Below are positions 9,156 through 46,955 of a stretch of DNA of 64,000 nt, one piece after another. How positions within the stretch are numbered: the first letter of the stretch is position 1; each line of letters begins with the position of its first letter. Location of the stretch: NCBI GenBank assembly GCA_963717145.1, contig OY970325.1:672001-736000 (forward strand). Direction: 5' to 3'. Origin of the DNA: an uncultured Armatimonadetes bacterium (GTDB lineage Bacteria > Armatimonadota > UBA5829 > DTJY01). The notes under the pieces are model-generated. The model did not search any database. It worked only from the letters and a program-made list of their open reading frames with translations, and was not told the origin of the DNA. The position numbers were made by a program, and so were the translations under genes.

Positions 9156-11339
9156 CTACGGATGCCTGAAGCTGAGTTTCGTGAGCGAGTGCGCCGGGAA
9201 GGCGTGGGTCATCCCTCCCGGCTTCGACTTCGCGACAGTCTTCTTGATCTTCACGACATCCGGGTTGCCCGGACTGTTGGCGTCGAGGTAGCTCTTCGAT
9301 GTGAGCGTCTCGATGACGGTCCGTGAGCCGGCCTCGAAGCCGTGGAGCGCGACCTCAGCGGTGATCGCCTCTGACGGATGGCGGTTGGTCACGAGCACGC
9401 ACAGTGCCTTTCCCGAGTCGTCAAGAAGAGCGACCGCGTCGAGATATGGAGCATCCGTCACGGCCGGAACTCCGGGCAGTTCCTCGATGTCGTACATCGG
9501 CGTGGTGATGCTCAGATGGACGGGCAGGCGTCCGTGCTGAGTCGCGTACATCTTCCGCGCTAGAAACACCGGCTGCTCGCAGACCACCTGCCTCCACTTC
9601 GCGAGCCCTCCGCCGTGATTTACCAGCGCGGAGTGCGTGATGATCTCGACCATGCCGTTCGTTCTGACCGAGGCGTTCACGATTCCGGCGTAGAATAGCG
9701 CCTCGGACAGGTTGACGTTGTTGGGCAGGCCGCCCTTGTTGGTGAAGATCTGCAGCTCGGTGATGGCGATCTTCGGGTCAGGGTTGCCCACATCCGACAT
9801 CTGCTTGCCCATCGCGCGGAGGTGACCTTCGTACCAGTGGGTGTAGGCCAGGAGCGACCTCAGCGCGGTGTCGGGAGGAGTCTCCTCGGGGATCGCGTCT
9901 CCGATCAGCGTGTGGATCGAGAGCGAGCGCACATCCTTCCCGTTCTTCTTGAGGACTGGGACATTCCAGTCGAGGAACTCCCTGCCTAGGGCGATGAACT
10001 CGATGCTCGGATCGACCGCGCGCATGGCGTCGCAGAAGAGGGTGTATCGGTTGGCATACTCATCCGCCGTGCAGTGGCCGATCTGCCAGTCGCCCCAAAG
10101 CTCGTTGCCGACCTCCCAGTACTTCACGCCATACGGCTCGGGATGGCCGTTCTTCGCACGGAGCTTGCCGTATTCGGTGTCCGCCGAGCCGTTGCAGTAC
10201 TCGACCCACTGAGCGGCCTCTTCGGGGGTGCCGTTTCCTGCGTTGATGCAGATCAGCGGATCGCAGCCGGTGATCTCGCAGAAGGCGAGCCACTCGTCCG
10301 TCCCCACGTGGTTCGGCTCATCGCCTCCCCATGCGGGATTCCTGCTCATCGGGCGGCCGAACGGATCGACCCTCACCCCCGACCCCTCTCCCTCAGAAGG
10401 GCGAGGGGAGTCCGCGCCGGACCACTCCCCTCGCCCTTCTGAGGGAGAGGGGTCGGGGGTGAGGGTCCGGGTGGTGTCAATGCCGTCCTTCCAGTGGTAG
10501 CCCGATACGAAGTTCCCGCCGGGGAACCTGAGCATGGTGATCTTCGAGTCCTTGACCAGGCGGACGATTTCCGGGTCGAAGCCCTCCATGTGGTCCGCGG
10601 GGAAGAGGAGACACTGGTCGAGCAGGAGCGTACCGGGTTTCCCCGCGCCGATGGTGAAGAGCAGCGTCTGAAACTTCTCAACGTACCTGGTGTCGATCTC
10701 GAAAAACGACTTGAACTGCTGCCATTCGCTTCCGATGCCGTCGATCTGAATCCCAGCGATCGCATTGCCCTCGGTGGTACGGATGGCGAGGTAGAGTCCG
10801 CCGATCGTTCCCTTCGCCCAGAAGCTGACCTCGTACTTGCCGGTTCGATGAGTCGGCAGAGTGATCGGCTGGAGGATGCCCACCCACGAACTCTCGAGGC
10901 TGCGGATCTCGATCTTCTGCGCCTGATCGGAGTTCACGCGATCGTCGGACGGAGAATAAGTGACGTCACCCTTACCCCATCGTCCCCAGAAGCACGCGAC
11001 GCCGGCCTTGAAGCTGTCGAGAAGGCCGTGTTCGTTCCGCCCGAGCCGCCTCTCGACGCCGGCGTCTTCCTCCCAACTGAAGTACTTCGCCGGCTCGAAG
11101 CCCGTGTTGTCGAGGAGCTGAGCCCACGCGCCTCCGTAGACGTTGCTGCCGAGGTGCTCGGTGAACTCGCCGAACAGGTATGGCGAGATCGGCTTCTCGG
11201 CCTTCTGCGCAACGTTGATCTCTATGCGGGCGTTCTGCCCCGCGACGAACTCGACGATCGGCTTCGACTGCGATGCGCGCATAGTTGTGCCTCCAAGCAG
11301 GAATGATGTCAAGACAAGGAATGCGAGTCTGCGGATCAA
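9156..11339 (-). CDS. GH51 alpha-L-arabinofuranosidase, secreted; in-frame palindrome insert
   Basis: ISPYLFGEFTEHLG, LRFPGGNF, WVEYCNG, YWEVGNE; TTG start chosen from SD plus signal peptide. Confidence 0.9.
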   Translation of the reverse strand: MIRRLAFLVLTSFLLGGTTMRASQSKPIVEFVAGQNARIEINVAQKAEKPISPYLFGEFTEHLGSNVYGGAWAQLLDNTGFEPAKYFSWEEDAGVERRLGRNEHGLLDSFKAGVACFWGRWGKGDVTYSPSDDRVNSDQAQKIEIRSLESSWVGILQPITLPTHRTGKYEVSFWAKGTIGGLYLAIRTTEGNAIAGIQIDGIGSEWQQFKSFFEIDTRYVEKFQTLLFTIGAGKPGTLLLDQCLLFPADHMEGFDPEIVRLVKDSKITMLRFPGGNFVSGYHWKDGIDTTRTLTPDPSPSEGRGEWSGADSPRPSEGEGSGVRVDPFGRPMSRNPAWGGDEPNHVGTDEWLAFCEITGCDPLICINAGNGTPEEAAQWVEYCNGSADTEYGKLRAKNGHPEPYGVKYWEVGNELWGDWQIGHCTADEYANRYTLFCDAMRAVDPSIEFIALGREFLDWNVPVLKKNGKDVRSLSIHTLIGDAIPEETPPDTALRSLLAYTHWYEGHLRAMGKQMSDVGNPDPKIAITELQIFTNKGGLPNNVNLSEALFYAGIVNASVRTNGMVEIITHSALVNHGGGLAKWRQVVCEQPVFLARKMYATQHGRLPVHLSITTPMYDIEELPGVPAVTDAPYLDAVALLDDSGKALCVLVTNRHPSEAITAEVALHGFEAGSRTVIETLTSKSYLDANSPGNPDVVKIKKTVAKSKPGGMTHAFPAHSLTKLSFRHP
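10368..10467. repeat. Perfect 44-bp-arm palindrome inside the GH51 gene
   Basis: GACCCTCACCCCCGACCCCTCTCCCTCAGAAGGGCGAGGGGAGT, 12-nt loop, exact reverse complement. Confidence 0.95.
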
Positions 11340-11408
11340 GGGTCCACCTTTCGGGCTATGGCTATGCAAGGGTTCAACGCCGGCCCGCCGTCTCCCTCCG
11401 CCCGTCCC

Positions 11409-11437
11409 CCATGAACCATCAACCATCAACCATTCCC
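11409..11437. repeat. Heptamer (AACCATC)n tract
   Basis: CCATGAACCATCAACCATCAACCATTCCC; near-identical tract at 12805-12833 and full palindromic form at 54036-54139. Confidence 0.7.
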
Positions 11438-11439
11438 CA

Positions 11440-12740
11440 TCATCCCCGTCCCCAGGCTACAAACATGAGCACGGCGGCGGCGCCCATCACCGCGAATGTG
11501 AACCAGCCGACGACCTTCGTCCATGGCCCGTTCAAGTATTCGCCCATGACCGATCGGTTGCCGCTCACGAGGAGCAGGATCAGAATCAGCGGCACGGCGA
11601 CGACCCCATTGATGACCGCTGTGTAGACGAGCGCCTTGATCGGGTCGATGTGGAGGAAGTTGATGGCCATCCCCGTCAGCACCGAAATGATCATGACCGC
11701 GTAGAACTGCGGCGCATCACTCAACTTCCTCGAGAGGCCCTCCCGCCACCCGAAGGTCTCGGAGAGCGCATATGACGCCGACCCCGCGAAGATCGGGACC
11801 GCCATCAGCCCGAGACCGATGATACCCAGCGCGAGATCCCCTCCGCGATCTTGCCGGCGTTGGCGAATCCATGGACGAGCGGCTCGAGTGCCTTTGCGGC
11901 ATCTGCGGCGGTAGCGACGTCGGTGATGCCCGCCTGATGGAGCGACCCGGCGGCGGTTACGATGATGAACCACGCGGCGATCTGAGAGAATGCCATGCCC
12001 GACCACGTATCGATCCGCATCTCACGGATCTCACGGCGCTCATCGTCATGGGATATCTCGCCTCGGAGGAGGCCCCTGTCCCTCGGCACGTGGCCTTTCT
12101 CGATCTCCTCCTCGACCTCCTGTGACGCCTGCCAGAAGAATAGATATGGCGAGATCGTCGTACCGAGCACGGCGACCATCAGCATCAGGAACTCGAAGGT
12201 GAAGGTGATCCGTGGGACGAATGTCGCGCGTAGAACCTCGACCCAGTTGTGCGATACGATGAAGCCGGTCAGAACGTAGGCGATCAGTGAGAGGGTCATC
12301 CACTTCAGGAAGCGCGCGTATGCTCGGTATGACACGAAGAGCTGCATAAGCACGGAGAACAGCGCGAAGATAGCTGTCAGGGAGAGGTACGGCAATGGGA
12401 TGAGGAGCTGAGTCGCCGCCGCCATCGCGCCTAGGTCCGTGCCGAGATTGATCGTGTTCGCCACCAGGAGCAAGCCGACGACGCCATATAGGATCGGCCT
12501 GGGGTAATGCTCGCGAACGACGCCCGCGATCCCCCTGCCGCTGACCATCCCGATCCGCGCGCAGATCTCCTGGACCGCCGCCATCATCGGCAGCATCAGC
12601 AGGATCATCCAAAGCTGGCCGTATCCGAATCGCGCGCCTGTCTGAGAGTAGGTCGCAATCCCCGAGGGGTCGTCATCCGCCGCCCCGGTGACTACTCCAG
12701 GGCCGATAATGCCGAAGAACCGTTTGACTTGCCGCCACAT
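11440..12740 (-). CDS. NRAMP-family divalent metal transporter; single frameshift at ~11835, likely a sequencing error
   Basis: GPGVVTGAADDDPSGIATYS, GTTISPYLFFWQ; C-terminal part continues in ORF 11440-12006 (ALGIIGLG). Confidence 0.85.
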
Positions 12741-12781
12741 ACAAGGGTTGTACCCGTTCTGAGCGCGAGGACAGCAAGCGA

Positions 12782-13693
12782 CTATGCGCGGCTCCGCTCA
12801 TTGACCGTCAACCATGAACCATCAACCATTCCCTTCGGTGCTTCCATGCGGCACGTCTTGAGCGGGTTCACGACCTGGCATATCCGCAGATCGGCGAATG
12901 CGCTCATCCACATCGCCGCCTCCGCGCGCTTGAGGCCGAACCGCTTCTCAAGGAGGGTCAACATCTTCACGGTCGCATTGTGGGCGGCGACATCGAGGTC
13001 GGCATCGGACGCGATTGTGGCGATCACCTCATCGTTCTCGACTATCGGCGTGGGCAGTGAGACACCCTTGAGCACGCCGACCTCCAGCTCGACCGTGCCA
13101 TCGCACTCGACGCCGGTCGTGCAGATCTCGCCGTCGCCCATGAGGGCATGGAGGTCGCCCATAGAGAGGAGTCCACCGTCGACGAACACGGGCAGATAGA
13201 CCGTCGAGCCGGCGGTGATGAGCTTGCAGTCCATGTTTCCGCCATGCTCTCCGGGCTTCCCGGTGGGAACGGGCGCTCCCCTGGGCGCGGTGCCGATGAC
13301 GCCGATCATGGGGTTGATCGGGACTTGCAGCTTGTCCGAGAAGACGACCTGCCCGTCACGGATCGGGAGGATTCGGGTCTCGGCCTTACGTATCAGGTCG
13401 CGCAGCTCGCCCATCCCCGGCGACACGACCATCACCCCGGTCTCGGCGACGGTGATGTCACGGATGCGCACGGCCAGGATGTCACCCTTGACGGCGCCCT
13501 CGATGTAGATCGGCCCGGTCGCCGGATTGACGGTCCCCCAGAACTGCGGCCCGTACTTGTCGCGCTCGGACTTGATCCCGCAGTTGAAGCAGTCCCGGAG
13601 ATCGACGGTGAACCGCTCCCCGGCCCTCACCCGGGCGACCGGCCTATCTGATTTCGACAGCTTGTAGATCGGTGATTGGCAGGGAATGTGCAT
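12782..13693 (-). CDS. Acetamidase/formamidase family protein
   Basis: NPATGPIYIEGA, PMIGVIGTAP, HGGNMD, GDLHALMGDGEI. Confidence 0.9.
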   Translation of the reverse strand: MHIPCQSPIYKLSKSDRPVARVRAGERFTVDLRDCFNCGIKSERDKYGPQFWGTVNPATGPIYIEGAVKGDILAVRIRDITVAETGVMVVSPGMGELRDLIRKAETRILPIRDGQVVFSDKLQVPINPMIGVIGTAPRGAPVPTGKPGEHGGNMDCKLITAGSTVYLPVFVDGGLLSMGDLHALMGDGEICTTGVECDGTVELEVGVLKGVSLPTPIVENDEVIATIASDADLDVAAHNATVKMLTLLEKRFGLKRAEAAMWMSAFADLRICQVVNPLKTCRMEAPKGMVDGSWLTVNERSRA

Positions 13694-13729
13694 TGTCCCC
13701 AACTCCCCCTCGACTTTCCTTCATGCAGA

Positions 13730-14674
13730 TCACTTGCCGTACTGGTAGGTGTACTCCCTCTTCTCCTGCATCTTCAGTTCCTGACGGCCTTCATCAGGAA
13801 TGTCCATAGCCATGGTGATCGTCCGATCGTTCGTCTCGGAGTAGATGAGCATCGTCTTCGGATCTATGACTCTCTCTCCACCGCCGGTAATCTTGACATC
13901 GACTATCTTCGGGGACTTCCCGGGGGCCGCTGACTCCGCAAGGCTGTCCATCACCGCCTGCATGAACTTCTGCGTGCCCTCAGCATCGGTCGTGTAGGAG
14001 AACGTGATGCGCACACAGTCCGCCTTGCCGGTCAGAACCCTCTCGGCGATCTTGGTCGTGGTATCGTAGACGATGGTGCCGAGCGGCAACTCGGCGGTCT
14101 GATCCTCCACCCAGGTGTCACCGATCTTCGCGGTCCGTCCGACAAATGATGCTATCCTCCCGTTCCATTCCGTGATCTCCTTGGCGATGGCAGCCTCTTT
14201 CATCCCGGGAAGAGCAGCGGCGAACTTCTCGTACTGCTCCGGAGGCATAGCTGACTTCAGTTCCTCTGTGAGTGCCTTGAATACCTCATCGAAGCCCTTG
14301 ACAGTGAGCATCTCCCCAAAGGAATCCAGATCAGACGTCACGACCACCTTCATCAGCCGGTCGACGATCGGGTTCGAGGGAAACTTCTCGCCGTTCCGTG
14401 TCAGGTCGACGGAGATTGGCGTCTGGATGAGCTTGTAGCCCTTTGCTGTCTTTCTGACGCCGATCTTGACCTTGGCGACACCGACATCGGTCTGAGTGTC
14501 CGACGGCCCCGTGCTCTTGATTTTCGTTGTCTTGAGCGTGATCGTGTGGGACGATGGCGTTGGCGGATTGAAGGTGAACGTGACCGAATCATCTTGGCTG
14601 CACGCCGGGACTCCCGGCATGATCGTCAACAGAGCGGCCGCAACCAAGCTGCAGACCATTGATCTCTTGTGCAT
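13730..14674 (-). CDS. Secreted hypothetical protein
   Basis: Signal-peptide-like N-terminus, GC3-rich codon usage, lies in an operon-like run of minus-strand genes. Confidence 0.7.
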   Translation of the reverse strand: MHKRSMVCSLVAAALLTIMPGVPACSQDDSVTFTFNPPTPSSHTITLKTTKIKSTGPSDTQTDVGVAKVKIGVRKTAKGYKLIQTPISVDLTRNGEKFPSNPIVDRLMKVVVTSDLDSFGEMLTVKGFDEVFKALTEELKSAMPPEQYEKFAAALPGMKEAAIAKEITEWNGRIASFVGRTAKIGDTWVEDQTAELPLGTIVYDTTTKIAERVLTGKADCVRITFSYTTDAEGTQKFMQAVMDSLAESAAPGKSPKIVDVKITGGGERVIDPKTMLIYSETNDRTITMAMDIPDEGRQELKMQEKREYTYQYGK

Positions 14675-14694
14675 TTCCTTGAGCCCTCCTAAGG

Positions 14695-16423
14695 TTAGTC
14701 TTCTTCCAACCGCAGGTACCACGTGCGATAGAGCACAAGGCACGCGACGAGGACGATGGCCGCCGCATAGATCGCCTCGGTGAAGCGGTGGAGCACGAGG
14801 TAGATCGGGCACATCCACATCGCCGCGAGGCACGGGATGCCGATCACGACATTCCCGAGGTCGCGCTTGATCGTGGACGGCTTCGATGACTTGCACCCCT
14901 TGGAGACGCATCCCCAGAACCCCGCGGGCCGGACCGAGGTGTAGAACTTGGCGAGCGTCTTCTCATCCGTCGCCTCCGTCGTGTAGGTCACGATGATCGT
15001 AATGACCAGGACGATCAACACGATCGCCGGGAACGTCACGAAGAGCGCCAGTCCTGAGAGCGCCGGGACGAACGCCTGGATCAGCGAGAGCACCATCCCC
15101 GAGATCGCGCCCGCCGCGTAGCCCCATCCGTTCATCCGCCACCAGTACCAGCGCAGGACGTTCGGCATCAGCACCCCCGCGCCGAGCGTGCCCATGATCC
15201 ACGTGAACATCTGGTTGATCGAGGTCGCGAAGAAGCCGATGCTGATCCCCATCACGATTAGCAGCGCCGACGATACGTAGCTCGCACGAATGAGCGTCTT
15301 CTGAGAGGCGTCCGGGTTGATGTACTTATGATAGATGTCCTTTACTATGTAGCTCGCCCCGCCGTTGACGGTCGAGTTGAAGGTCGCCAGGAAGCCGGAG
15401 AGGAGCGCCGCGATCGCGAACCCCCTCAGCCCCGCCGGGAGCATCTGCTGGATAACCGACGGCAGCACTTTCTCGTGGTCCCTTGATGAGGACCGAGCGC
15501 CATTATGCCAAGGACTGCCAGTGCCATCGCCATCGGCCAGCGCACGGTGTGTATCACTCCCCACAGCGCCCCGAGCTTCGAGGCGTCCTTCGGGTTCTTC
15601 GCCGCCAGGAACCGCTGGAAGTCGTAGAGCTGCTCCGGCCCTGAGAGCGAGAGGAGCAGTCCCTTCATCACCCAGATGATCAGCAGCGCCCCGAAGAGCT
15701 GGTACGTGGGGTCGGCCAGTTCGGTGAGCTTCCACTCCGGGACGAGGCTGCCCCAGTTCGAGGGGACCTTCGCTGCCAACTGAGCCGCCGAGACGTGGGT
15801 GAATCCGAGGTATGCGATGACAATGGCCCCGATGCTCAGCACCGACGGTCTGGAAGATCTCGACCATCACCACCCCGTGGAAGCCGCCCATGACGACGTA
15901 GATCCCCGTGATGCCGATGATCAACGCGGCGCACACGTGCTCGCTGAACGGGAGGTAGACCGAGCCGAACTTTCCCATCCCGACCGCTCCGTAGGCGAGG
16001 AACGCGGTGATCGTGAGGACGGCGTAGATCGTGTAGGAGGCGCGGGCTGCTTCCCCTGCCTTGCCGCTCCCGAAGCGGGTCTCCATCCACTCGCTCCCGG
16101 TCATGACGCCCGAGCGTCGAATCCACTTGCCCATGTACGCCATGTAGAAGACGGGGATGATGAACCCCCAGATCCATTGCACCCACATCCCCTTCAGGCC
16201 GATGGTGTACGAACAGGCTGACGATCCACATCGTGCCGGTGATGTCGAAGTACGATGAGCTGCCGGACATCGCGAGCGCCCACCACGGAAGCTGACGCTC
16301 TCCGAGGAAGTAGCTCCCGATGTTCTTCGCGGCCCGGCGCTTCATCCACATGCCGAGCGTGATGACGACCGCGAGGTATGCGACGATGATCGTGATGTCG
16401 ATGGTGCTCAGCCGAATGTCCAT
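14695..16423 (-). CDS. Sodium:solute symporter (SSS); three frameshifts (~16210, ~15843, ~15482)
   Basis: YFLGERQLPWW, QRFLAAKN, LPAGLRG, WYWWRMNGWG spread over three reading frames. Confidence 0.85.
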
Positions 16424-22435: not shown

Positions 22436-22513
22436 GGCTGTCATTCTGAGCTTGGCGAAGAATCTGGCCTCCCAGGCCGGGCCAGATTCTTCGCCAAGCT
22501 CAGAATGACAGCC
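22436..22513. repeat. Perfect 34-bp-arm palindrome (GTCATTCTGAG...CGAAGAATCT family)
   Basis: Arms 22436-22469 and 22480-22513. Confidence 0.9.
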
Positions 22514-32552: not shown

Positions 32553-33542
32553 ATGAAACGTCCGGTTGTGGCGGTTACAATGGGTGATCCGGCGGGGATC
32601 GGGCCGGAGGTCGTGCTCGGTGCCTTGAAGAGCGCCGAGGTCTATGAGCGCACGGTCCCGGTCGTGATAGGGAGCATCGAAGTACTGCGGAGACAGACAG
32701 GCGTCTCTGGGATCGAGCTGGTATCCGTCGATAGTCCTGAGAACGCTGAGGGGCAGTGTGGCCGCATGGATGTGCTCGATGTGCCGACGCCCGGAGTGGA
32801 GTCGATCGTTCCGGGGAAGGTCCAGGCGGCGGCGGGAGTAGCGGCCGATGCGTACATCCGCAAGGCGTGCGACCTCGCCCTCGAAGGTCGCATCGACGCC
32901 ATCTCGACCGCACCGATCAGCAAGGAGAATCTCCGAGCCGCCGGAATCCGAGGCATCGGGCACACCGAAGTGCTTGCCGAATACCTGCATTCCCCCGATC
33001 CGCTCACGCTTTTCATCACCGAGAACATGCGTATCTTCTTCCTCTCACGGCATCTCTCGCTTCGGCAGGCGATTGACTACATCACCGAGGAGCGGATGAT
33101 CATCATGATCCGCCGGGTCGATGCGTCGATGCGGGACTTAGGCTTCCAGTCGCCGAGTATCGCTGTCGCCGCGCTCAATCCCCATGCGAGCGACGGCGGG
33201 CAGTTCGGGGACGAGGAAGTGACGATCATCATCCCCGCGATCGAGAAGGCGCGAGGCGAGGGGATCGATGTCATCGGCCCGATCGGCGCGGACTCGGTCT
33301 TTCACCAGGCTCTCGAGGGGCGGTTCGACTGCGTGATCTCGCTCTACCACGATCAGGGCCACATCGCTGCCAAGACCCGCGATTTCTTCCGCACGGTGAC
33401 CGCGACCCTCGGGCTGCCGATCCTGCGCACATCGGTCGATCACGGCACGGGCTTCGACATCGCGTGGCAGGGGAGGGCGAACCCGGTCAGCATGGAGGCG
33501 GCGATCCTGGCGGCGGCGGAGATGCTGGGGCACGGGGCGTAG
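32553..33542 (+). CDS. pdxA: PdxA-family dehydrogenase, possibly catabolic PdxA2
   Basis: TMGDPAGIGPE, GHTE, LNPHA, YHDQGH, RTSVDHGT. Confidence 0.93.
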   Translation: MKRPVVAVTMGDPAGIGPEVVLGALKSAEVYERTVPVVIGSIEVLRRQTGVSGIELVSVDSPENAEGQCGRMDVLDVPTPGVESIVPGKVQAAAGVAADAYIRKACDLALEGRIDAISTAPISKENLRAAGIRGIGHTEVLAEYLHSPDPLTLFITENMRIFFLSRHLSLRQAIDYITEERMIIMIRRVDASMRDLGFQSPSIAVAALNPHASDGGQFGDEEVTIIIPAIEKARGEGIDVIGPIGADSVFHQALEGRFDCVISLYHDQGHIAAKTRDFFRTVTATLGLPILRTSVDHGTGFDIAWQGRANPVSMEAAILAAAEMLGHGA

Positions 33543-33608
33543 GGGCGAAGCATTGGCTGCCGAGTGCGGAACAGCTTGGGCAACCGGAAGCCAATGCTTC
33601 GCCCCTAC
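33539..33608. repeat. GTAG-type REP doublet supplying the stop codons of both flanking genes
   Basis: GTAGGGGCGAAGCATTGGCT ... AGCCAATGCTTCGCCCCTAC. Confidence 0.9.
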
Positions 33609-34929: not shown

Positions 34930-34996
34930 GTGTAGTGGCCGTGCCTCAGTGCCGGCCAGTGACTTGTAGGCCGGCACTGAGGCACGGCCACTACAC
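34930..34996. repeat. GTAG-type REP doublet, copy 1
   Basis: TGTAGTGGCCGTGCCTCAGTGCCGGCC plus perfect inverse, 11-nt loop. Confidence 0.9.
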
Positions 34997-35192: not shown

Positions 35193-35259
35193 TGTAGTGG
35201 CCGTGCCTCAGTGCCGGCCACCGGGATGGCATGGCCGGCACTGAGGCACGGCCACTACA
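35193..35259. repeat. GTAG-type REP doublet, copy 2
   Basis: Arms identical to copy 1, different loop. Confidence 0.9.
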
Positions 35260-35261
35260 AT

Positions 35262-37508
35262 TCACTTTGGGAGCTTGGCCGTTATTCTCTCAAGCGTCGA
35301 TACGTTCCTCAGCAGCCTGCCGTCGACGTACAGACTATACCCCTTCTTGATGCCTTCATAGCGCCGTCCATCGGGCCGATCATCCCAGACGATGCTGAGC
35401 ATGTGTCCCTTGTACGGCACGCGGTCGAGCCGGAAGTGGTCCCATGGCACTCCAGCGACCGGGTACAACTCGATCACATCGTCGCTCCTCGGGACGAGGC
35501 CGCCGATGAGGGTGACGATCAGGTCGTTGTAGGTCGAGTGGAAGTAGTCCGGACAGCCGTACATCTGCCCGTCGTCTGCGTTGCCCTCCTCGCGGATGTT
35601 CGGCTGCTTCCACGTGCCCTTGTCCTCATAGTGAAGGCTCGTGTATGAGTCGAGCAGTTCCCAGACCTTCCGCGGCGTGACTGCCGGGCTCATGTAAGTC
35701 CGGATACCCTGAGCGAGGGCCTGGGCGACGAGGCTCTCCGCATGTGGCCACGTCGGGCCGTTCCAGTTGCAGAGGGTGACCTTCGGCGTGTACATCGGAC
35801 ACTTCATCGTGCAGGTGGTCACCGGGTAAGTCCCCCAGAACTCCGATGGGTCTAGGAGCGATTCGAACGCCCGCACGGAGCGCTTGTCGGCGGCCCCGAA
35901 GGTGAACGGGTAGATGCCGACCACCTCCTTGACCATCGCCTTCTCGTCCGTGCCGGTCTTGATCGAATAGAAGTACCCCGTGTGCGAGTCCCACATCAGG
36001 GTGTTGATCGCTTCCTTGATCTTGTCGGCCAACGCATCGAACTGGGACGCCTTGCCCGGATCTCCGAGCGCGCGATACGCCTCGGCGACCGCACGGGCGT
36101 TAGCATAGTAGTATGCCGTGTAGTCGGGGCGATAAAGGTTGGTCTCCTTCGAGCGGTCGTAGTTGTCGAACGCGAACCATGCGGGCTGCCATTCCATGCC
36201 GGTCGCCCAGTGGTTCGGCGGGTTGAGCAGGTAGTCCCTCAGCGGCCGGTCGGTGGCAAGCTTGCCGGGGAATGCACATTCAGTGTCCTCCGCCCACGCC
36301 GGAAGGAGCTTCGCCAACTCCCTCCTGTCGGGGTGAACGAGGTACGCGTTCCAGAGAGTCTGCGCGATCCAGTGGGTGTACCCGCCGAACCGGCGTCCGT
36401 TTGGTTCGCGGCGCTTCCCGAGGATCTCCGCCTGGCCGAATGCATACCGGCCGTCCCTGAGCCACCGCACCTCATCCATGATGTGCGGCGCGCTGTAGGT
36501 GATATGCCGCGTGTATCCCCCGCGCTTGCCCTCGAAGAAGCCGGGAACGCCGTCCTCCTCCTGGTAGTTCACGCGGACGAGCAGCCACCGATAGTACCAG
36601 CAGCGAGTCCACTTCTCGTCGGGGCAGTCGAAGTACGGGATCTCGTCCGCGAGCCACTTCTCGATCTCGGCGCGCTTCTTGTGGATGCGCGTCCTGAGCG
36701 CCTCGTCGAACCGGTCAGCGCCCATCATCGCTCGGAACGGATATCGCGGCAGTTCGTTCGGATCGAGCGCCAGGAAGCCGATCCTCTTCGCCATCTCCCG
36801 GACCGACTTCGGCGTCCGGGAGAGAGGCGCGGGCTGATCCGCAGGGACCTCGATCGGGGCATCGAGGCCGAATGATCCCGCGAGTGCCTTGGCCTCGTCG
36901 GCGCTGAGGGCCGTGTTCCAGACCATCACATCGCCGAGCGATCCCCTGAAGTGCTCGCCGACGCTCCATCCGCCGATGGTCCAGTTGTCGGGATCCTTCG
37001 GGAACGGCTGGACGGGGGAGTTCGCGACCTCTTTCCCGTTGAGATAGAGCCGCGCATGCGACCGATCATCCAAGGTGATGGCGATGTGGAACCACTGGTC
37101 CTCGGGCAGCCATAGGGTGGGTATCCAGTCGCGGCCCCAGGATGCGAGCTTGGCGGAGTAGACGGAAACGACTAGGCCGCCCGCGTCAGCCGACCCGATC
37201 ACCTGCCCAAGCGCCTCGCTGGCGGTCTTGACTCGCGCGGAAAGAGTGAAATCCCTGCGGAACTTCATCTTCTCCGGAGCGCCGACCGCGATCTGAGTGC
37301 TGCCGTCGAACGCGAGTCCCTCGGAGGTCCACTTTCCGCCGGAGAGCCTTCCGTCGGCCTTGGATGTCGAGTAGTCGTGGACGATACTCCCCTTGCTGTC
37401 GTCCATCTTGTACCAGAGCACGAGGTTGTCCGGCTGAGGGATGGCGGTCGCGCTCAATGATGACATTATCGACAGGATGGCGCTGATGACGAGGATGATC
37501 GTTCGCAC
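35262..37508 (-). CDS. Secreted LamG-domain + GH63/MGH1-like (alpha/alpha)6 glycoside hydrolase
   Basis: LVLWYKMDD, WFHIAIT, FRGSLGDVMVWNTALS; YYRW, E.RWL, WNGPTWP, DYFHSTY. Confidence 0.8.
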   Translation of the reverse strand: MRTIILVISAILSIMSSLSATAIPQPDNLVLWYKMDDSKGSIVHDYSTSKADGRLSGGKWTSEGLAFDGSTQIAVGAPEKMKFRRDFTLSARVKTASEALGQVIGSADAGGLVVSVYSAKLASWGRDWIPTLWLPEDQWFHIAITLDDRSHARLYLNGKEVANSPVQPFPKDPDNWTIGGWSVGEHFRGSLGDVMVWNTALSADEAKALAGSFGLDAPIEVPADQPAPLSRTPKSVREMAKRIGFLALDPNELPRYPFRAMMGADRFDEALRTRIHKKRAEIEKWLADEIPYFDCPDEKWTRCWYYRWLLVRVNYQEEDGVPGFFEGKRGGYTRHITYSAPHIMDEVRWLRDGRYAFGQAEILGKRREPNGRRFGGYTHWIAQTLWNAYLVHPDRRELAKLLPAWAEDTECAFPGKLATDRPLRDYLLNPPNHWATGMEWQPAWFAFDNYDRSKETNLYRPDYTAYYYANARAVAEAYRALGDPGKASQFDALADKIKEAINTLMWDSHTGYFYSIKTGTDEKAMVKEVVGIYPFTFGAADKRSVRAFESLLDPSEFWGTYPVTTCTMKCPMYTPKVTLCNWNGPTWPHAESLVAQALAQGIRTYMSPAVTPRKVWELLDSYTSLHYEDKGTWKQPNIREEGNADDGQMYGCPDYFHSTYNDLIVTLIGGLVPRSDDVIELYPVAGVPWDHFRLDRVPYKGHMLSIVWDDRPDGRRYEGIKKGYSLYVDGRLLRNVSTLERITAKLPK

Positions 37509-37512
37509 GGAC

Positions 37513-37600
37513 AAACCCCCTCGGCCCGGAGGCCGGTCCCCCTTCGTAAGGGGGACATCTGTGCTGGCCCGGAGGCCGGTCCCCCTTCGTAAGGGGGACA
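37513..37600. repeat. Tandem GGCCGGTCCCCCTTCGTAAGGGGGACA hairpin units
   Basis: Two 35-bp units; same unit at 49370-49404. Confidence 0.85.
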
Positions 37601-40244: not shown

Positions 40245-41347
40245 CACTCGGAGTCGCAAAACCTGAGGAAGTCGGCCTGGACGCCGAGCGCCTGAAACGA
40301 GCCGAGCAGATAGTCATTGGCGGCGTCGAGAGGGATGAGTACACCGCCGGCGTCTACCTTGTCGCGCGACATGGAAGGATCGCCGCTCAGGGCCCATTCG
40401 GTCGTTTGGGCGAACCCGGCGCACCCGAGGCGAAGATCGACTCGATCTTCGACATGGCGTCGATGACGAAGCCGGTCTCGACCGCCACGTCGCTCATGAT
40501 GCTGGTCGAGCAGGGCAGGCTGCACCTCAATCAGCCGGTGACGGACTTCTTCCCCGACCGCAAGATGCCGCATCTCTCCGAGGTTACGATCAAGCAGCTT
40601 CTCACGCACACCTCCGGTCTCCCGGCATGGTGCGATCTCTTCTCGAAGGAGGGAACGCGCGAGTCGGCGATCGAGCAGCTCCTGCAGATCCCGTTGGAGA
40701 AGCCACCGGGCACGCACTACGCCTACAGTTGCATGGGGTACATCACGCTCGGCCTGGTGATCGAGGGGATCACAGGCATGCCGCTCGAGGTGTTCGCCGC
40801 CGAGAACGTCTTCAAGCCGCTGGGGATGGCAGAGTCGGGCTACAACCCATCGAAGGACTTGTGCGGGCGGATCGCGCCGACCTCGCACAGTCGCGGAAGG
40901 GATTACTGCCTCAAGGGGGAGGTCCATGACGAGAATGCCCATGCGATGGACGGGAACGCGGGCAACGCGGGGCTCTTCTCGACTGCGCCGGATATCGCGA
41001 TCTACGCGCAGATGATGCTCAACGGCGGGGAGTATGACGGTGTGCGCCTCCTGAGCCCGCTCAGTGTTCGACTGATGATCTCGAATCGGATCGATCCCTC
41101 GATCGGCGGTCACGGCCTGGGGTACTTCACTCGGCCGAACGAGATGACTCCTGCTGCCGACCTCTTCTCTGCACGTGCGGCGGGACACACGGGGTTCACT
41201 GGGACGTCGTTCCTGCTCGACCCGGAATACGACATCTTCGTGATCCTGCTGACGAACCGCGTCTACAAGAAGCGCGAAGCCCCGGATTTCCTCCGTCGCC
41301 GACGCCTCTTCCACAACGCCGTCGCAGCTTCGATAGTGGGGGAGTAG
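40241..41347 (+). CDS. Serine hydrolase, beta-lactamase class C-like
   Basis: FDMASMTK, LLTHTSGL, YS, GEVHDENA, GHTGFTG. Confidence 0.9.
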   Translation: MTLGVAKPEEVGLDAERLKRAEQIVIGGVERDEYTAGVYLVARHGRIAAQGPFGRLGEPGAPEAKIDSIFDMASMTKPVSTATSLMMLVEQGRLHLNQPVTDFFPDRKMPHLSEVTIKQLLTHTSGLPAWCDLFSKEGTRESAIEQLLQIPLEKPPGTHYAYSCMGYITLGLVIEGITGMPLEVFAAENVFKPLGMAESGYNPSKDLCGRIAPTSHSRGRDYCLKGEVHDENAHAMDGNAGNAGLFSTAPDIAIYAQMMLNGGEYDGVRLLSPLSVRLMISNRIDPSIGGHGLGYFTRPNEMTPAADLFSARAAGHTGFTGTSFLLDPEYDIFVILLTNRVYKKREAPDFLRRRRLFHNAVAASIVGE

Positions 41348-41445
<98 letters not shown>

Positions 41446-41447
41446 CC

Positions 41448-42548
41448 CTACATGATCTGCATCGGCATGACGACGTAGAGGTAGTCGTCCTTGCCGACCT
41501 GCTTGATGACGCCGGCGTTGAGGGGGCCGCTGAGCTCCATGGCGATCCCCTCGGTATCGACGACGCTCAGGTACTCCACGAGGTACTTCGCGTTGAAGGC
41601 GATCTCGATGTCCTCGCCCTCCTTCACGATGTCCAGCTCGTCGTATGCCTTGCCGACATCGCCGCTCTCGGCGGTGACGGTCATGCGGTCGCCCTCGGTG
41701 CGCAGGATGATGCGGTTCGCATTCTCCCTGGCGACGATTGATGCCCTGCGGACCGTCGAAAGCAGCGACTCGGCGGGCATCGTGAGCTTTTTTTCGGACG
41801 ACTGAGGGATGATGCGGTCGTAGTTCGGGAACTGGCCCTCGATCAACCTCGATACGACCGAGGTGCCGTTGATCTGGAACTTGATCTGGTTCTCCGCAAT
41901 CGAGATGTTCACGCCGGTGTCCTCGTCCTCGAGCATCCGGCCGACCTCGCCGAGCGCCCGGCCGGGTACGATCGCGGTGGCTTCGCCCGTGGCGTTTGCC
42001 ACCTCGGAATCGCGGAGTGCGAGCCGGTGTCCGTCGCTTCCGACGAGACGAACCCCATCGCCATTGAGGACCAGCAGTATGCCGGTCAATATCGCCCTCG
42101 ACTCGTCCGGTGAGACGCAGAAGATCGTCTGCTTGATCATGTCCTTGAGGACCGATTGCGAGATCTCGAAGCTGTGTTCGTCCGGCACGTCGGGAAGGGC
42201 GGGGAACTCCTCCGGCGGGAGGCCGAGGATCGTGTAGTCGGACTTCTCGCATTTGACGTTCACGGCGTTCTGCTCGTTGACAGACAGGATCACGTCCGAC
42301 TCGGGCAGCGTCGCCAGGAACTCGCCGAGCACCCTGGCGGGCACAGTGAGAGCACCCTCCTCGTCGATGGTGGCGGGGATACTGCATTCGATCCCCATCT
42401 CCAGGTCGAACGACATCAACCGCAGATGGTCATCCTCGGTCTTGATGAGGACGTTGTTCAGAATCGGCAGTGCACTCCGTCCGGCGACTGCCCTGCTGAC
42501 AGTCTGGACGCCCTCGTGCAGGTCCTTCCTCGAGCATATGGCTTTCAT
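41448..42548 (-). CDS. dnaN: DNA polymerase III beta clamp
   Basis: LPILNNVLI, SDGHRLA, SRLIEGQFPNY, IAFNAKYL, VVMPM. Confidence 0.97.
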   Translation of the reverse strand: MKAICSRKDLHEGVQTVSRAVAGRSALPILNNVLIKTEDDHLRLMSFDLEMGIECSIPATIDEEGALTVPARVLGEFLATLPESDVILSVNEQNAVNVKCEKSDYTILGLPPEEFPALPDVPDEHSFEISQSVLKDMIKQTIFCVSPDESRAILTGILLVLNGDGVRLVGSDGHRLALRDSEVANATGEATAIVPGRALGEVGRMLEDEDTGVNISIAENQIKFQINGTSVVSRLIEGQFPNYDRIIPQSSEKKLTMPAESLLSTVRRASIVARENANRIILRTEGDRMTVTAESGDVGKAYDELDIVKEGEDIEIAFNAKYLVEYLSVVDTEGIAMELSGPLNAGVIKQVGKDDYLYVVMPMQIM

Positions 42549-42675
42549 GCAGCGACCCTCCCTGAGCATTTCGGAATGTGTTGGTGAACGACTCGTAATA
42601 CATGCGCCTGCCTGGTCCCAGGCGTGGCCGAGACAGTATAGCACAGGGAGGGAAGTGCAATCAATATTTGAATGA

Positions 42676-42704
42676 TTGCCAGCAGCATGCTTCAGCGCTA
42701 TAAT
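42676..42704 (+). promoter_or_regulatory. Sigma70-type leaderless promoter
   Basis: TTGCCA-17-TATAAT-7-ATG. Confidence 0.7.
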
Positions 42705-42711
42705 CTACCAC

Positions 42712-43350
42712 ATGGAGAGTCTGGTCCTCACGGTTGACCCCGCTGTTCCTGATCCTGAGGTCATTCAAACGGCGGTGGAGGCGATTCGGCGGGGCGAACT
42801 GGTCTCGTTCCCGACGGAGACAGTCTATGGTCTCGCGGCCGATGCGTTCAACGATGATGCCGTCGCACGCGTCTACGAGGTAAAAGGCCGGCCTGCGAAC
42901 AACCCGCTGCCAGTGCAGGTGGCTTCTGCGGACGACATCAGACAAGTGGCGATCGATATCCCGGATGTGGCATGGGAGCTGATCCGCCGGTTCATGCCCG
43001 GCCCGCTCACCATCGTCTTGCGCGCATCGCCCGGTCTGCCCGACATGGTGACTGCAGGGACTGGGACCGTTGGCGTCCGAATCCCCGATCACCCCGTCGC
43101 GCTCGCGTTGATCCGGGCAGCCGGAACCGCTATCGTCGCCCCGAGCGCGAATCCATCCGGCGAACCGCCTCCCCCAAGCGCCGAGGAGGTACTCGCGTAT
43201 CTCGATGGCCGGATCGAGTACATCCTCGACGCCGGCCCGACACTGCTCAAGATCGCTTCGACGGTCGTCGATCTGACCTGCACGCCTCCGCGAATCCTCC
43301 GGCACGGCGCAATCAGCGAAGAAGACCTCGCTCCGTTCCTCAAGCGCTGA
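42712..43350 (+). CDS. tsaC: L-threonylcarbamoyladenylate synthase (YrdC domain only)
   Basis: FPTETVYGL, KGRP..NPL, PGPLT, APSAN.SG. Confidence 0.95.
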   Translation: MESLVLTVDPAVPDPEVIQTAVEAIRRGELVSFPTETVYGLAADAFNDDAVARVYEVKGRPANNPLPVQVASADDIRQVAIDIPDVAWELIRRFMPGPLTIVLRASPGLPDMVTAGTGTVGVRIPDHPVALALIRAAGTAIVAPSANPSGEPPPPSAEEVLAYLDGRIEYILDAGPTLLKIASTVVDLTCTPPRILRHGAISEEDLAPFLKR

Positions 43351-43440
43351 TCGACCTACCGCCTGTGTTTAGCGATTTATCGCTTCGGGAATGCACAGAT
43401 GATGGAGTCCGGCTCCATACTCCCAAACACGGAGAGGATC

Positions 43441-44589
43441 ATGCCCGATCCACGATTGCCGATCACCAGCGACGAAGGCTTCTACGAAATGCGCTTCGAG
43501 TCTATCGGTGGACTCGGAAGCAACCTCGCGAGCCAGATGCTCGCCGAGGGTCTCGTGCTCAATATGGGCTTCAACGGCGCGAACTTCTCCTCTTACGGCT
43601 CTGAGAAGAAGGGATCGCCGGTCACCTCGTTCATTCGCATCTGCGAGTGCGACAGGGACGTCCGGAGCAGCAGCCCGGTCGAGCGCCCCCACCTGCTCGC
43701 CATCTTCCATGAGCAACTGATCAGCATTCGGGGGATGACCGAGGGTCTGTACCCGGAGAGTGCGGTCGTGGTGAACACGTCGAGCGATCCGGCGACCATG
43801 CGAGAGATCATCGAACTGCCAAGCGGGTCGGTCGTGACCCTCGACGCCATGAAGATCGCGATCGAGGAGAAGTCGAGAATCAACACTGCGATGCTCGGTG
43901 CGATCGTTCGGGCGTCCGGCTTCATCGACCGGGACGCGATTCGGAAGGTCATCTCGGACACGTTCTCCACGAAGTATCCCGCGCTCGTCGAACCGAACCT
44001 GCGGACGTTCGACCGGGGTTTCGATGAGTCGCAGGTCCAGAGCTTCGAGCCGGATGGTCGATACGAGTTCAAGCCGTATCAGCGGCTGATCCCGAAGCTC
44101 GGGTATCGGAACCAACCGATGGGCGGCACGATCACGAACCCCGGGAACACCGTCCTGAAGGACCTCAGCTCGGCGCGGCATGGATACTACCCGCTGTATC
44201 ACCGCGATCGGTGCATCGACTGCGGGCTCTGCGACATGACCTGCCCGGACTACGTGTTCGTGTGGGAGATGGGCGTCGACAAGCAGGGGAAGCCCGCTCC
44301 CGTCCTGCGCGGTCCGAACCTCCAGTACTGCAAGGGCTGCCTCAGGTGTGTCGAGATATGCCCTGTCGATGCGCTGACGAAGGAAGAGGAGACGGGCCTT
44401 CATACCCAGCCGTCGGACGTGCAGCTTATCGGCCCGATCGAGGCTATCGCGGACATGAGCCAGGCGGATGTCGAGCCGGCCGGGCGCTCCTTCGATGAGG
44501 AGAAGGCGGCGGAGTACGTGACCGCGGGCGATGATACTCATACCTGCGAGGTCGATGCCGGCGAAATCAGGACTAGGAGCGATAGATGA
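43441..44589 (+). CDS. 2-oxoacid:ferredoxin oxidoreductase, gamma+delta fusion
   Basis: RFESIGGLG, YGSEKKGSP, CIDCGLCDMTCP, YCKGCLRCVEICP. Confidence 0.92.
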   Translation: MPDPRLPITSDEGFYEMRFESIGGLGSNLASQMLAEGLVLNMGFNGANFSSYGSEKKGSPVTSFIRICECDRDVRSSSPVERPHLLAIFHEQLISIRGMTEGLYPESAVVVNTSSDPATMREIIELPSGSVVTLDAMKIAIEEKSRINTAMLGAIVRASGFIDRDAIRKVISDTFSTKYPALVEPNLRTFDRGFDESQVQSFEPDGRYEFKPYQRLIPKLGYRNQPMGGTITNPGNTVLKDLSSARHGYYPLYHRDRCIDCGLCDMTCPDYVFVWEMGVDKQGKPAPVLRGPNLQYCKGCLRCVEICPVDALTKEEETGLHTQPSDVQLIGPIEAIADMSQADVEPAGRSFDEEKAAEYVTAGDDTHTCEVDAGEIRTRSDR

Positions 44590-46955
44590 CACAGACAACT
44601 GCCAAGCCGTCACAAGAAGCAAAGCAGATAACCGATTTCCGGAAGGGCAACGAGATGGCGGCCATCGCCGGGAAGCACATCAACTTCCATGTTATGGGCT
44701 ACTACCCGATCACGCCCTCGACCGAGATCGCCGAGGAACTCGACGAGATGTACGCCGAGGGCCTGCACGACATTCGGATGATCCCCGCTGACGGGGAACA
44801 TGGCGCCGCCGGGATATGCTACGGCGCCTCGCTCGGCGGAGGGCGAGTGCTGAACGCTACGAGCGCGAACGGCCTCTTGTACTCGATCGAGCAGCTTCCG
44901 GTGCAGTCCGGCACGCGCTTTCCGATGGTGCTGAACGTCGTTACCCGCTCAGTGAGCGGCCCGCTCGACATCAGGGGCGACCATTCGGACATCATGATGG
45001 CGCTGAACTGCGGCTGGATCATCCTGATGGCGCGGGATCCCCAGGCTGTGTACGATATGAACATCGTGGCGGTCAAGATCGGCGAGCACCCCGATGTCCG
45101 GCTACCGGTCATCGTCGCCAGCGACGGGTTCTTCACGAGCCACCAGAAACGGCGTGTGAAGTACTTCGAGGAGTGCAAGGTTGTACAAGAATTCCTCGGC
45201 ACATTGTACATACATATAACTCCGCTCGATCCTGAGTACCCCGTCACAATCGGGCCGTACATGAACGATCCCGACATGATCAACAACAAGTATCAGCTCC
45301 ACCTTGCGATGGAGGCGGCCGCGGGAGTGATCCCCCAGGTCTTCGAGGAGTATGGCAGGCTAAGCGGCAGGCGCTATCCCGCTGTCGATGCTTACAGGAT
45401 GGAGGACGCCGAGGCGGCCCTCTTCCTTGTGAACTCCGCGGCTGACACGGCGAAGGATGCCGCCGACCGCCTGAGGTCCGAGGGGCACAAAGTCGGCGTG
45501 GTCAGCCCGAATGTGATCCGCCCATTCCCGGCGGAGGAGATACGGTCGGCCTGCAGGAATGTGAAGGCCCTCCTGATCGCCGACCGAGCGGACTCTTACG
45601 GCGCATCGGGCGGCAACATGTCGCTCGAGGTCCGGGCGGCCTTGAAGCAGGACCCGGCGAACCGGACTCTCTGCGCGTCACGGATCTATGGGCTCGGCGG
45701 TAAGGACTTCTACGTTGAGGACGCCGAGGAGATGCTCCATACGGCGCTCAAGGTGGCTAAGGAGGGCAAGGTCGAGATGCCGTTCGACTACTTCGGCGTG
45801 AACCCCGGCGATCCCGACGTGAAACTGGAGTACGAGCAGCCGCCGATCAGCCTGGAGGAGTCCTCCCCCGGGATCAATAGCGTGCACGCGGAGAGCGCCC
45901 GGCCCTCACCCCCGACCCCTCTCCCAGAGGGCGAGGGGAGTCCCCCCTCGCCCTCTGGGAGAGGGGTCGGGGGTGAGGGCCGGGCGCTCTCCGGCAAGGC
46001 GACCGTCGGCACGACGCGTCAGTTGGCAATGATGCCCCAGCGGATCGCTCCCGGTCACGGCGCGTGCCCTGGATGTGGGATCTTCCCGAGCGTCGATCAG
46101 TTCCTCAAGGGGATCGAAGGTCACGTAGTACTGCTCTTCCACACCGGCTGTGGGATGGTGGTCACCACGGGCTACCCGTTCAGCTCGCATCGAGTCACCT
46201 ACATCCACAACCTGTTTCAGAACGGCGCCGCGACTCTCTCCGGCCTGGTCGAAGTGTTTCGTGAGATGAAGCGGCGCGGTGACCTTCCGAAGGACCGCGA
46301 CATCACGTTTGTCATGGTGACGGGCGATGGAGGCATGGACATCGGCCTCGGACCGACGGTCGGCGCGGCATTGAGGGGTCATCCCATGATCGTCCTCGAG
46401 TACAACAACGAGGGCTACATGAACACCGGCAACCAGCTCAGCTACTCGACTCCGCTCGGCCATGCCACTTCCACGAGTCACGTCGGCCCGAAGCAGACCG
46501 GCAAGTGGTTCCACGAGAAGGACATGGCGCAGATCATGGCGGCCTCCGGTGCGCCTTATGTGTTCACGAGCGTCGAGGGCCTGGCGACGGACCTCGTGAA
46601 GAAGGGCGCGAAATCCCAGTGGCATACGAAGCAGGGACACTTCGTCTACGGACGCGTGCTGAGTGTCTGCACCTTGAGCTGGCGCAGCGACGAGAATCTC
46701 GGGACGAAGGTCGTAAAAGCGGCGGTCGACTCCTGCGCATGGCCGGCGTTCGAGATCGAGAACGGCATCACGACTATCAACTACGATCCGGAGGAGAAGG
46801 GCAAGCGCATCCCGCTCGGCGACTGGCTCGGCATGATGGGCAAGACGAAGCACCTGCTCAAGCCGGAGAACGCCGAGGTGCTGGCGGAGTTGGAGCGCGA
46901 GACCGAGCGCCGCTGGCGTCGTCTGAAGGCGATGCACGAGCATCCCCTCTTGTAG
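44586..46955 (+). CDS. 2-oxoacid (pyruvate):ferredoxin oxidoreductase, alpha+beta fusion; in-frame palindrome in the linker
   Basis: YPITPSTE, DGFFTSH, YGLGG; GHGACPGCG, GDGG, NNEGYMNTG. Confidence 0.93.
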   Translation: MTQTTAKPSQEAKQITDFRKGNEMAAIAGKHINFHVMGYYPITPSTEIAEELDEMYAEGLHDIRMIPADGEHGAAGICYGASLGGGRVLNATSANGLLYSIEQLPVQSGTRFPMVLNVVTRSVSGPLDIRGDHSDIMMALNCGWIILMARDPQAVYDMNIVAVKIGEHPDVRLPVIVASDGFFTSHQKRRVKYFEECKVVQEFLGTLYIHITPLDPEYPVTIGPYMNDPDMINNKYQLHLAMEAAAGVIPQVFEEYGRLSGRRYPAVDAYRMEDAEAALFLVNSAADTAKDAADRLRSEGHKVGVVSPNVIRPFPAEEIRSACRNVKALLIADRADSYGASGGNMSLEVRAALKQDPANRTLCASRIYGLGGKDFYVEDAEEMLHTALKVAKEGKVEMPFDYFGVNPGDPDVKLEYEQPPISLEESSPGINSVHAESARPSPPTPLPEGEGSPPSPSGRGVGGEGRALSGKATVGTTRQLAMMPQRIAPGHGACPGCGIFPSVDQFLKGIEGHVVLLFHTGCGMVVTTGYPFSSHRVTYIHNLFQNGAATLSGLVEVFREMKRRGDLPKDRDITFVMVTGDGGMDIGLGPTVGAALRGHPMIVLEYNNEGYMNTGNQLSYSTPLGHATSTSHVGPKQTGKWFHEKDMAQIMAASGAPYVFTSVEGLATDLVKKGAKSQWHTKQGHFVYGRVLSVCTLSWRSDENLGTKVVKAAVDSCAWPAFEIENGITTINYDPEEKGKRIPLGDWLGMMGKTKHLLKPENAEVLAELERETERRWRRLKAMHEHPLL
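45889..45993. repeat. Perfect 50-bp-arm palindrome (105 bp, 35 codons) inside the PFOR gene
   Basis: Core CCCTCACCCCCGACCCCTCTCCC...AGGGCGAGGGG shared with 10368-10467. Confidence 0.95.

Follow-up and report, generated by a model that had tools for sequence, protein, structure and literature searches.

Palindromic repeats that enter bacterial genes in frame are already known, and the bare observation of one is not new. Rickettsia palindromic elements (RPEs) are palindromes of ~150 bp that sit in frame in unrelated housekeeping enzymes, with about half of the copies intragenic and no resident transposase (PMC10969869, PMC3733652), and with one conserved peptide per family (PMC10969869). REP dimers and REPINs are head-to-head doublets of ~100 bp with conserved arms and a variable spacer (PMC3733652; 10.1101/2021.07.10.451892). 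REPINs are described as almost exclusively extragenic (10.1101/2021.07.10.451892), and intragenic REP dimers adding 20-30 aa have been described (PMC3733652). A third repeat, known in E. coli as BoxC, PIT or TMECO, is a three-block intrastrand triplex motif (TM), with 23 copies in strain MG1655 that are described as always intergenic, inverted pairs at 5 sites, a patchy abundance among relatives and a tie to local instability (PMC4666352). Here we describe a palindromic element that lies in frame in two enzyme genes of an uncultured Armatimonadetes bacterium, within a stretch of 64,000 nt (contig OY970325.1 of assembly GCA_963717145.1, positions 672,001 to 736,000; hereafter the window).

Judged by its sequence, the element is best described as a head-to-head dimer of a BoxC/PIT/TM arm with a variable spacer. 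It acts like RPEs and intragenic REP dimers without belonging to either, and is a BoxC-type variant. A first-pass annotation of the window had proposed an RPE-like mobile hairpin. That holds for the behaviour, which is that of an in-frame, lineage-specific, mobile palindrome family, but not for the identity. Like RPEs, the palindromes occupy unrelated enzymes in frame, but their sequence is unrelated as judged by the defining tags only (no CGTC end here), they are ~100 bp long, they use three entry frames, and their host is free-living with a large genome. Unlike REPIN/RAYT systems they have neither a GTAG/CGTC tag nor an adjoining RAYT gene, the associated gene encoding a PD-(D/E)XK nuclease instead. 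They have the same three 9-nt blocks as E. coli BoxC and differ from it in a 5-nt second loop, in forming mostly perfect dimers, and in having half of their copies within genes. On balance we lean towards reading the inserts as non-autonomous, selfish, REPIN-like BoxC/TM dimers that are translated as neutral disordered loops, are moved by a DUF559 nuclease, and occupy slots that later repeats overwrite.

Below, G000 is the genome under study, in which the window is part of one single 5.37-Mb contig; G001, G006, G007, G009 and G102 are other genomes compared, and P0123, P0243 and P0244 are protein-only records. Genes were called with a hexamer coding model built in this analysis.

Two perfect palindromes in frame in unrelated enzymes

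The two palindromes interrupt a GH51 alpha-L-arabinofuranosidase-like gene and a gene for a pyruvate/2-oxoacid:ferredoxin oxidoreductase (PFOR) alpha-beta fusion (Table 1). As the first-pass annotation had stated, the arms of each are fully complementary, both host reading frames stay open, and translation gives the peptides it had quoted: TLTPDPSPSEGRGEWSGADSPRPSEGEGSGVRV in GH51 (9156-11429, minus strand) and PSPPTPLPEGEGSPPSPSGRGVGGEG in PFOR (44586-46955, plus strand), read in different frames. It was also right that the copies differ from each other while each keeps matched arms, the GH51 arms being the consensus and the PFOR arms a short-hairpin variant. For the GH51 and PFOR palindromes, the RNA folding z-scores are -12.0 and -15.7, with an equally good fold in 0 of 200 shuffles, and the predicted stem energies are -112 and -136 kcal/mol. 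Three window genes have their closest named homologues in Armatimonadota.

The insert in GH51 has almost no counterpart among homologues. In 110 parsed sequences out of 120, the spacer is 13 residues long in 108, 11 in one, and 44 in P0123, compared with 49 here, and a Gly conserved in 118 of the 120 homologues is Asp at the 5' junction of the insert. A metagenome scan for closer GH51 genes returned 29 loci (best 68%), and all of the 24 that could be parsed were without an insert. An AlphaFold model built from 98 alignment rows has a mean predicted local distance difference test score (pLDDT) of 91.5, with the insert as its sole disordered segment (pLDDT < 50), and both catalytic Glu motifs (GNE and ITE) are intact. 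A Trp nine residues past the insert aligns, in an alignment to the Protein Data Bank entry, with Trp99 of the Thermobacillus enzyme, a residue of the beta2-alpha2 loop, which is mobile and closes the active site (PMC4939007). This would place the insert in the predicted beta2-alpha2 lid loop of the catalytic barrel, and therefore not in an inert linker.

In PFOR, none of 100 full-length homologues has the insert, and the linker region measures 51-59 residues in them as opposed to 86 here. This count was taken from the alignment, since a linker pattern had missed 72 of 121 proteins. The insert is modelled as disordered (residues 443-465, pLDDT < 50) at a beta-hairpin turn in the alpha-beta linker. 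We rejected the palindrome as the cause of the PFOR fusion, because homologues without the insert are already alpha-beta fused. Had orthologues all carried equivalent peptides, the proposal of a recent insertion would have failed; nearly all GH51 and all full-length PFOR homologues lack them. The suggestion that such hairpins add Pro/Gly-rich loops to proteins agrees, as a prediction, with the two models, in which both inserts are disordered on intact folds.

Contigs of related strains from three sequencing runs (window 45805-46202) break off shortly before the PFOR palindrome and continue on its far side, which may mark an assembly break at hairpins. The four DNA runs that we used hold relatives only, at roughly 90-95% identity, and none of the pieces listed bridges the PFOR palindrome, so that they are uninformative on the insert there. 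These contig ends would fit an artefact of assembly or polishing as the source of the perfect arms. Even so, an artefact would surprise us greatly: the 22 copies described below have different loops and private variants that appear on both arms, their frames stay open, and independent assemblies (G001, G006 and G102) contain equally good palindromes of their own variants.

The arm is a variant of BoxC

Each arm consists of a C-rich tail and a short hairpin, and its opposite strand reads as a three-block triplex motif. The three 9-nt blocks CCCTCNCCC, GGGNGAGGG and GGGNGAGGG, taken from the consensus in PMC4666352, are matched by all four window arms. The second loop (GTCGG) is 5 nt long where the strict TMECO pattern demands 3 nt, and the window arms therefore fail that pattern and are filed as a BoxC-type variant. 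The strict pattern has 16 matches in G000, all of them arms of a sister subfamily. The motif is nearly mirror-symmetric, and a backwards control accordingly gives 27/22 matches at 1 mismatch. The arms end in CCCTCACC with a loosely spaced CGGA leader, which is found no more than 12 nt outside 23 of 44 arms, compared with a background of 6.2%; neither a GTAG nor a CGTC terminal tag was found at the ends of this genome's arms.

Half of the dimers lie within genes

The 23-nt core has 28 + 23 matches in the genome at up to 3 mismatches, 21 of them as an inverted pair. The window subfamily comprises 22 dimers, 11 intergenic and 11 in frame within genes, whose hosts include alr, hemA, ligD, a radical SAM protein gene and a kdsB fusion. 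This is the genome-wide count that the first-pass annotation had called for, and its claim of insertion in different frames extends beyond the two window genes, with all three entry frames used (5/5/1). The lengths show no preference for multiples of three: only 5 of the 11 intragenic palindromes are divisible by 3, and that in GH51 is not among them.

Long palindromes are common in this genome (941 with arms of at least 22 bp, 123 of them inside called genes, in 26 families of at least 4 members), and the TM family, with both subfamilies counted, is enriched within genes (14/29 as opposed to 109/912 for the other long palindromes; Fisher p 3e-6). Two other palindrome families reach 12/24 intragenic. 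Despite the high intragenic share, only ~41% of the frames through intergenic TM copies are open. The G-rich strand of the consensus arm has TGA in two of its three frames, which means that the spacer length must set the arm in the single open frame.

The palindrome family is lineage-specific. An exact pattern match occurs in 48 of 201 genomes of the phylum, with 1 to 120 matches each in a patchy distribution, and the 27+22 motif matches in G000 compare with 0-7 per genome in three other genomes of the same family.

Two single TM arms lie in frame in each of trmFO (C1:2575897-2577156) and a 1305-aa gene (3509538-3513455), and single arms also occur within a nucleoside hydrolase gene and a flavoenzyme gene. 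The DUF6785 host gene (C1:1932560-1934692) aligns over 722 residues in one frame with an in-frame TAG after codon 199, which may be a nonsense mutation, an error or a site of readthrough. Another dimer (C1:3140244-3140345) lies exactly at the orthologues' stop of a heparinase/alginate-lyase-like gene. It links this upstream gene in frame with a protein encoded by a gene of its own in G007, and may be a palindrome-bridged gene fusion; a frameshift lies near 3141770 in the upstream gene.

The two arms of a copy are mostly identical

The first-pass annotation had suspected arm homogenisation, and the copies bear this out. The two arms are identical within the copy in 17 of 21 dimers, while shuffled arms give a mean of 4.8 (p 5e-5). 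One truncated copy of the 22 was excluded, and the arm cut shortened the short variants, which inflates the distance between copies and leaves the identity count unaffected. Among 13 copies that depart from the consensus, 9 depart equally on both arms. In 10 of 21 copies the pairing runs on past the core by at least 5 bp, compared with 2.4% for flank pairs taken from different copies. One described cause of identical arms is template switching between inverted repeats (PMC8604942). Arm identity of this kind would also result if each dimer were built at insertion from a single arm, and either process accounts for the replaced junction codons.

Removal of the inserts at the RNA level, which the annotation had also raised, does not agree with the frame, junction and Rfam evidence. 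The GH51 palindrome is 100 nt long, so skipping it shifts the frame, and since host codons are replaced at the junctions, excision would not restore the sequence of the homologues. Rfam gave no match at either insert site, and its only match in the window is a tRNA gene (56752-56824). A self-splicing intron or structured RNA family was rejected on these grounds: there is no Rfam match, and removal restores neither frame nor sequence.

More broadly, the hairpins could be kept for a function in RNA or DNA (RNase III processing, ribosome pausing, or a triplex or cruciform) or be removed from the mRNA, the peptide being secondary. The very stable stems, the presence of RNase III and the persistence of perfect arms despite sbcD speak for such a role. 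We nevertheless find it very improbable, because the lengths and junctions behave as described above and the sites are mostly empty in homologues. In addition, PIT elements are reported to have no promoter, terminator or in vivo effect, according to earlier work summarised in PMC4666352, and template switching yields perfect arms without selection (PMC8604942).

Insertion sites hold different repeats in relatives

When all 11 intragenic sites were compared with relatives, another or a decayed repeat-derived insert was found at the same place in a relative at 6 of them: GH51 (P0123), hemA (G006, and P0243 and P0244 by peptide), and the DUF6785, radical SAM and two unnamed genes (all in G001). 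Sites without reuse are PFOR, alr (0/4), ligD (0/2, distant), the kdsB fusion (0/4) and the site coinciding with the orthologues' stop codon. In G001, the orthologues cover 8 of these 11 sites and are occupied at 4 of the 8.

The GH51 protein P0123 is the sister of the one here (support 100/99, with the insert cut out before tree building). The two proteins have the junction Asp in common and differ in their TM-like peptides, in agreement with a single insertion in an ancestor and a later replacement. The site was thus probably already occupied in the ancestor common to G000 and P0123. In hemA, G000, P0243 and P0244 form one clade (100/98) with three different inserts, and 97 of 102 parsed sequences lack any insert (23 further ones were unparsed). 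At one site G001 has a GTAG-REP dimer, and in G000 the end of that REP survives beside the TM dimer, which homology-based conversion cannot explain. Fourfold sites differ by 48% and 58% between G000 and G001 while the G000 copies are near the consensus, so the copies at shared sites must have been rewritten. Taken together, these comparisons suggest that repeat slots are overwritten in place by later repeats. The annotation's view of an active or recent element is then right about the sequence that the copies have now, but it does not apply to every site, as the GH51 case illustrates. Published descriptions include two Xanthomonas species whose recB genes contain different REPs at about the same site, and REPs that lie within other palindromes (PMC3733652); beyond these remarks, no account of in-place repeat succession was found in the open literature searched.

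A simpler alternative is that the insertions are independent and random and pass a strong filter, so that the same few permissive loops are hit in each lineage with neither targeting nor overwriting. The sites are indeed loops or linkers, hemA is filled in G006 and in the G000 clade and empty in G001 and three other close homologues, and the intragenic share tracks open frames across 18 families (Spearman 0.49, p 0.04). However, the alternative does not predict the derived junction residue common to the sister GH51 proteins or the older GTAG-REP remnant beside a TM dimer, and occupation of 4 of the 8 sites spanned by G001 would need very few permissive sites in ~4,300 genes. We judge it unlikely, though worth serious consideration.

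DUF559 genes as candidate partners of the repeat

PMC4666352 names no mobiliser for BoxC/TM repeats. The annotation had advised looking for a copy beside a nuclease or transposase gene, and in G000 no copy of the window subfamily brackets one (7 Y1_Tnp loci and 2 DUF559 genes were checked). In relatives, DUF559 genes are bracketed by the motifs. In a first set of 20 genes (17 strong matches from 10 genomes, 2 from G000 and E. coli ycjD, with 5 weak matches left out), a C-tail hairpin lay within 250 nt of 17 and a BoxC-like arm at 5, with controls at 1/66 and 0/66. Earlier flank patterns, which found only 10 of the 20 or mis-oriented one locus, had been replaced before the held-out test. In that test, with unchanged patterns, 7 held-out genes of the same family had a C-tail hairpin within 250 nt in 7/7 cases and a BoxC-like arm in 6/7 (controls 0/28).

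Individual loci point the same way. Locus L074 (G102) has full dimers on both sides of the DUF559 gene, and at locus L180 (G009) a flanking arm shares the 5-nt loop and the TCCGG end of the window arms. The G006 hemA insert finds its best match in the flank of G006's own DUF559 gene (score 88, compared with at most 56). In E. coli, a strict TMECO follows the ycjD stop at a distance of ~165 nt. In the fabI-ycjD region of MG1655 (L096 2205-2430), the ycjD stop is covered by a degenerate arm, which together with a strict BoxC/TMECO copy makes up a decayed inverted pair. Our E. coli control genome (strain not identified) gave no PF04480 match, though ycjD of MG1655 is annotated as DUF559; ycjD is missing from some E. 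coli lineages (PMC12817139). When plasmids were searched with a DUF559 cassette, 9 records matched in the repeats only, and none of them reached 80% coverage of the query.

From these flanking sequences, a DUF559 (Vsr-like) nuclease is a likely mover of BoxC-type repeats. The DUF559/YcjD Vsr-like nucleases in the literature belong to the same Pfam family as the bracketed genes; in the text available they are described as putative nucleases or as proteins of mismatch repair, and flanking repeats are not connected with them (PMC1189080, PMC12907096, PMC12817139). A link between DUF559/YcjD and BoxC repeats was not found in open papers; the supplements of PMC4666352 and PMC3733652 may list ycjD or intragenic copies.

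Alternatively, the repeats might be moved by a Y1 transposase of the RAYT type, or by host recombination in the form of gene conversion between copies, with the DUF559 genes merely collecting them. The genome has 7 Y1_Tnp matches, the dimers have REPIN architecture, and G000 has no cognate DUF559 gene. Yet the motif is in the 330-nt flanks of 0/7 Y1 loci, most of which have their own GTAG-type repeats, the arms are untagged, and the DUF559 genes have lineage-matched motif variants. RAYT as the mobiliser was rejected for want of cognate flanks at the Y1 loci, and the alternative as a whole seems improbable to us. Six Y1/RAYT-like genes (C1:242007, 827258, 3783917, 4479024, 5159789 and 1557731) are each flanked by their own repeat family.

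A proposed cycle and the points against it

We return to the reading that we favour, in which a DUF559 nuclease moves the dimers and later repeats overwrite them. Its starting point is the TM-like arm, whose dimer makes a long perfect hairpin and is present in the counts given above. The DUF559/YcjD nuclease (Vsr-like, PD-(D/E)XK), whose genes are bracketed by the motifs, would then cut extruded hairpins, and repair would either place a copied dimer at a new site or write it over an older hairpin; in G000 the cognate nuclease gene may have been lost or not assembled. Polymerase template switching, as the pattern of arm identity would allow, could then equalise the arms and extend them over host flanks, so that junction codons are replaced and not cleanly split. 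The inserts retained by selection would be those in which the frame is restored without meeting either TGA codon of the G-rich arm, and which are placed in surface loops or linkers. Finally, going by the relatives, a loop that bears a hairpin would become a slot for later repeats, related species holding their own current repeat there. A bolder version, in which BoxC/TM and DUF559/YcjD form a REPIN/RAYT-like replicator whose PD-(D/E)XK nuclease targets any extruded hairpin, repeatedly rewrites slots of 30-40 residues (the lid loop included) and can fuse neighbouring genes, is possible but in our view doubtful.

Several observations weigh against the favoured cycle. As regards the nuclease, the two DUF559 genes of G000 are flanked by other hairpins and match the window-type inserts worst (scores 17-26), and the cognate gene of the inserts therefore seems lost or unassembled. 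The first 20 DUF559 genes served to tune the generic flank pattern, 10 of their genomes had been chosen as motif-rich, and a Caulobacter DUF559 protein has been proposed as a mismatch-repair nuclease (PMC12907096). As regards the slots, 5 of the 11 sites, PFOR included, show no reuse. A general 9-mer test for nesting in other repeats was null (8/22 compared with 39.6%), and the sharper test that gave 4/22 compared with 0.35% was devised after it. The palindromes of P0123, P0243 and P0244 are deduced from peptides. We found no close strain in which a site is empty, and the junction mechanics rest on homologues at 75-89% identity. Finally, an in-frame TAG occurs in one of the intragenic hosts and a frameshift in a second, and the gene calls come from our own hexamer model.

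Features and other repeats of the window

The features of the two insertion sites are collected in Table 1. The window also contains at least 7 other palindrome or REP families (741-819, 22436-22513, 33539-33608, 34930-34996, 35193-35259, 46983-47097, 48513-48645 and 58279-58349), of which the palindrome at 741-819 falls within a called gene. A further hairpin family of the window (37501-37600 and 49348-49404; C-tail + CCCCCTTCGTAAGGGGG) also brackets a DUF559 gene of G000 (C1:5226639-5226962).

Table 1. Coordinates in the window of the two palindromes, their motifs and inserts, and their host genes.
Feature	Position	Strand	Remarks
GH51 alpha-L-arabinofuranosidase-like gene	9156..11282	-	708 aa from the start preferred by the coding model; longest ORF 9156-11429
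Perfect palindrome, head-to-head dimer of apparent BoxC/TM-type arms	10368..10467	.	arms 10368-10411/10424-10467, 100% complementary, 44 bp; 12-nt loop; both arms equal the genome's consensus arm
GH51 insert, 41 codons in place of 5	10356..10478	-	GPVDK in G001; net +36 aa
TM motif	10428..10465	+	C-rich stem, 6-nt loop, G-rich stem, 5-nt loop (GTCGG), G-rich stem
Inverted twin of the TM motif at 10428..10465	10370-10407	-	
PFOR alpha-beta fusion gene	44586..46955	+	789 aa
Perfect palindrome, apparent BoxC/TM dimer, short-hairpin variant	45889..45993	.	arms 45889-45938/45944-45993, 100% complementary, 50 bp; 5-nt loop; variant common to 3 other copies
Copy-specific 14-bp arm extension beyond the core	45889..45902	+	mirrored at 45980-45993; starts with the CGGA leader
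PFOR insert, 37 codons in place of 9	45885..45995	+	IEDPETGKV in G001; net +28 aa

Implications

BoxC has been without a known origin or mobiliser since the 1990s, as summarised in PMC4666352, and the pairing with DUF559/YcjD offers a candidate. Because E. coli has both BoxC and ycjD, the pairing is directly testable there. The ends of the relatives' contigs near the PFOR palindrome hint that short-read assemblies undercount such inserts. If slot reuse is true, low-complexity Pro/Gly loops of bacterial enzymes can stem from a succession of repeats and not from selection on the protein, and insertion-tolerant sites would be mapped in enzymes such as GH51, alanine racemase and HemA.

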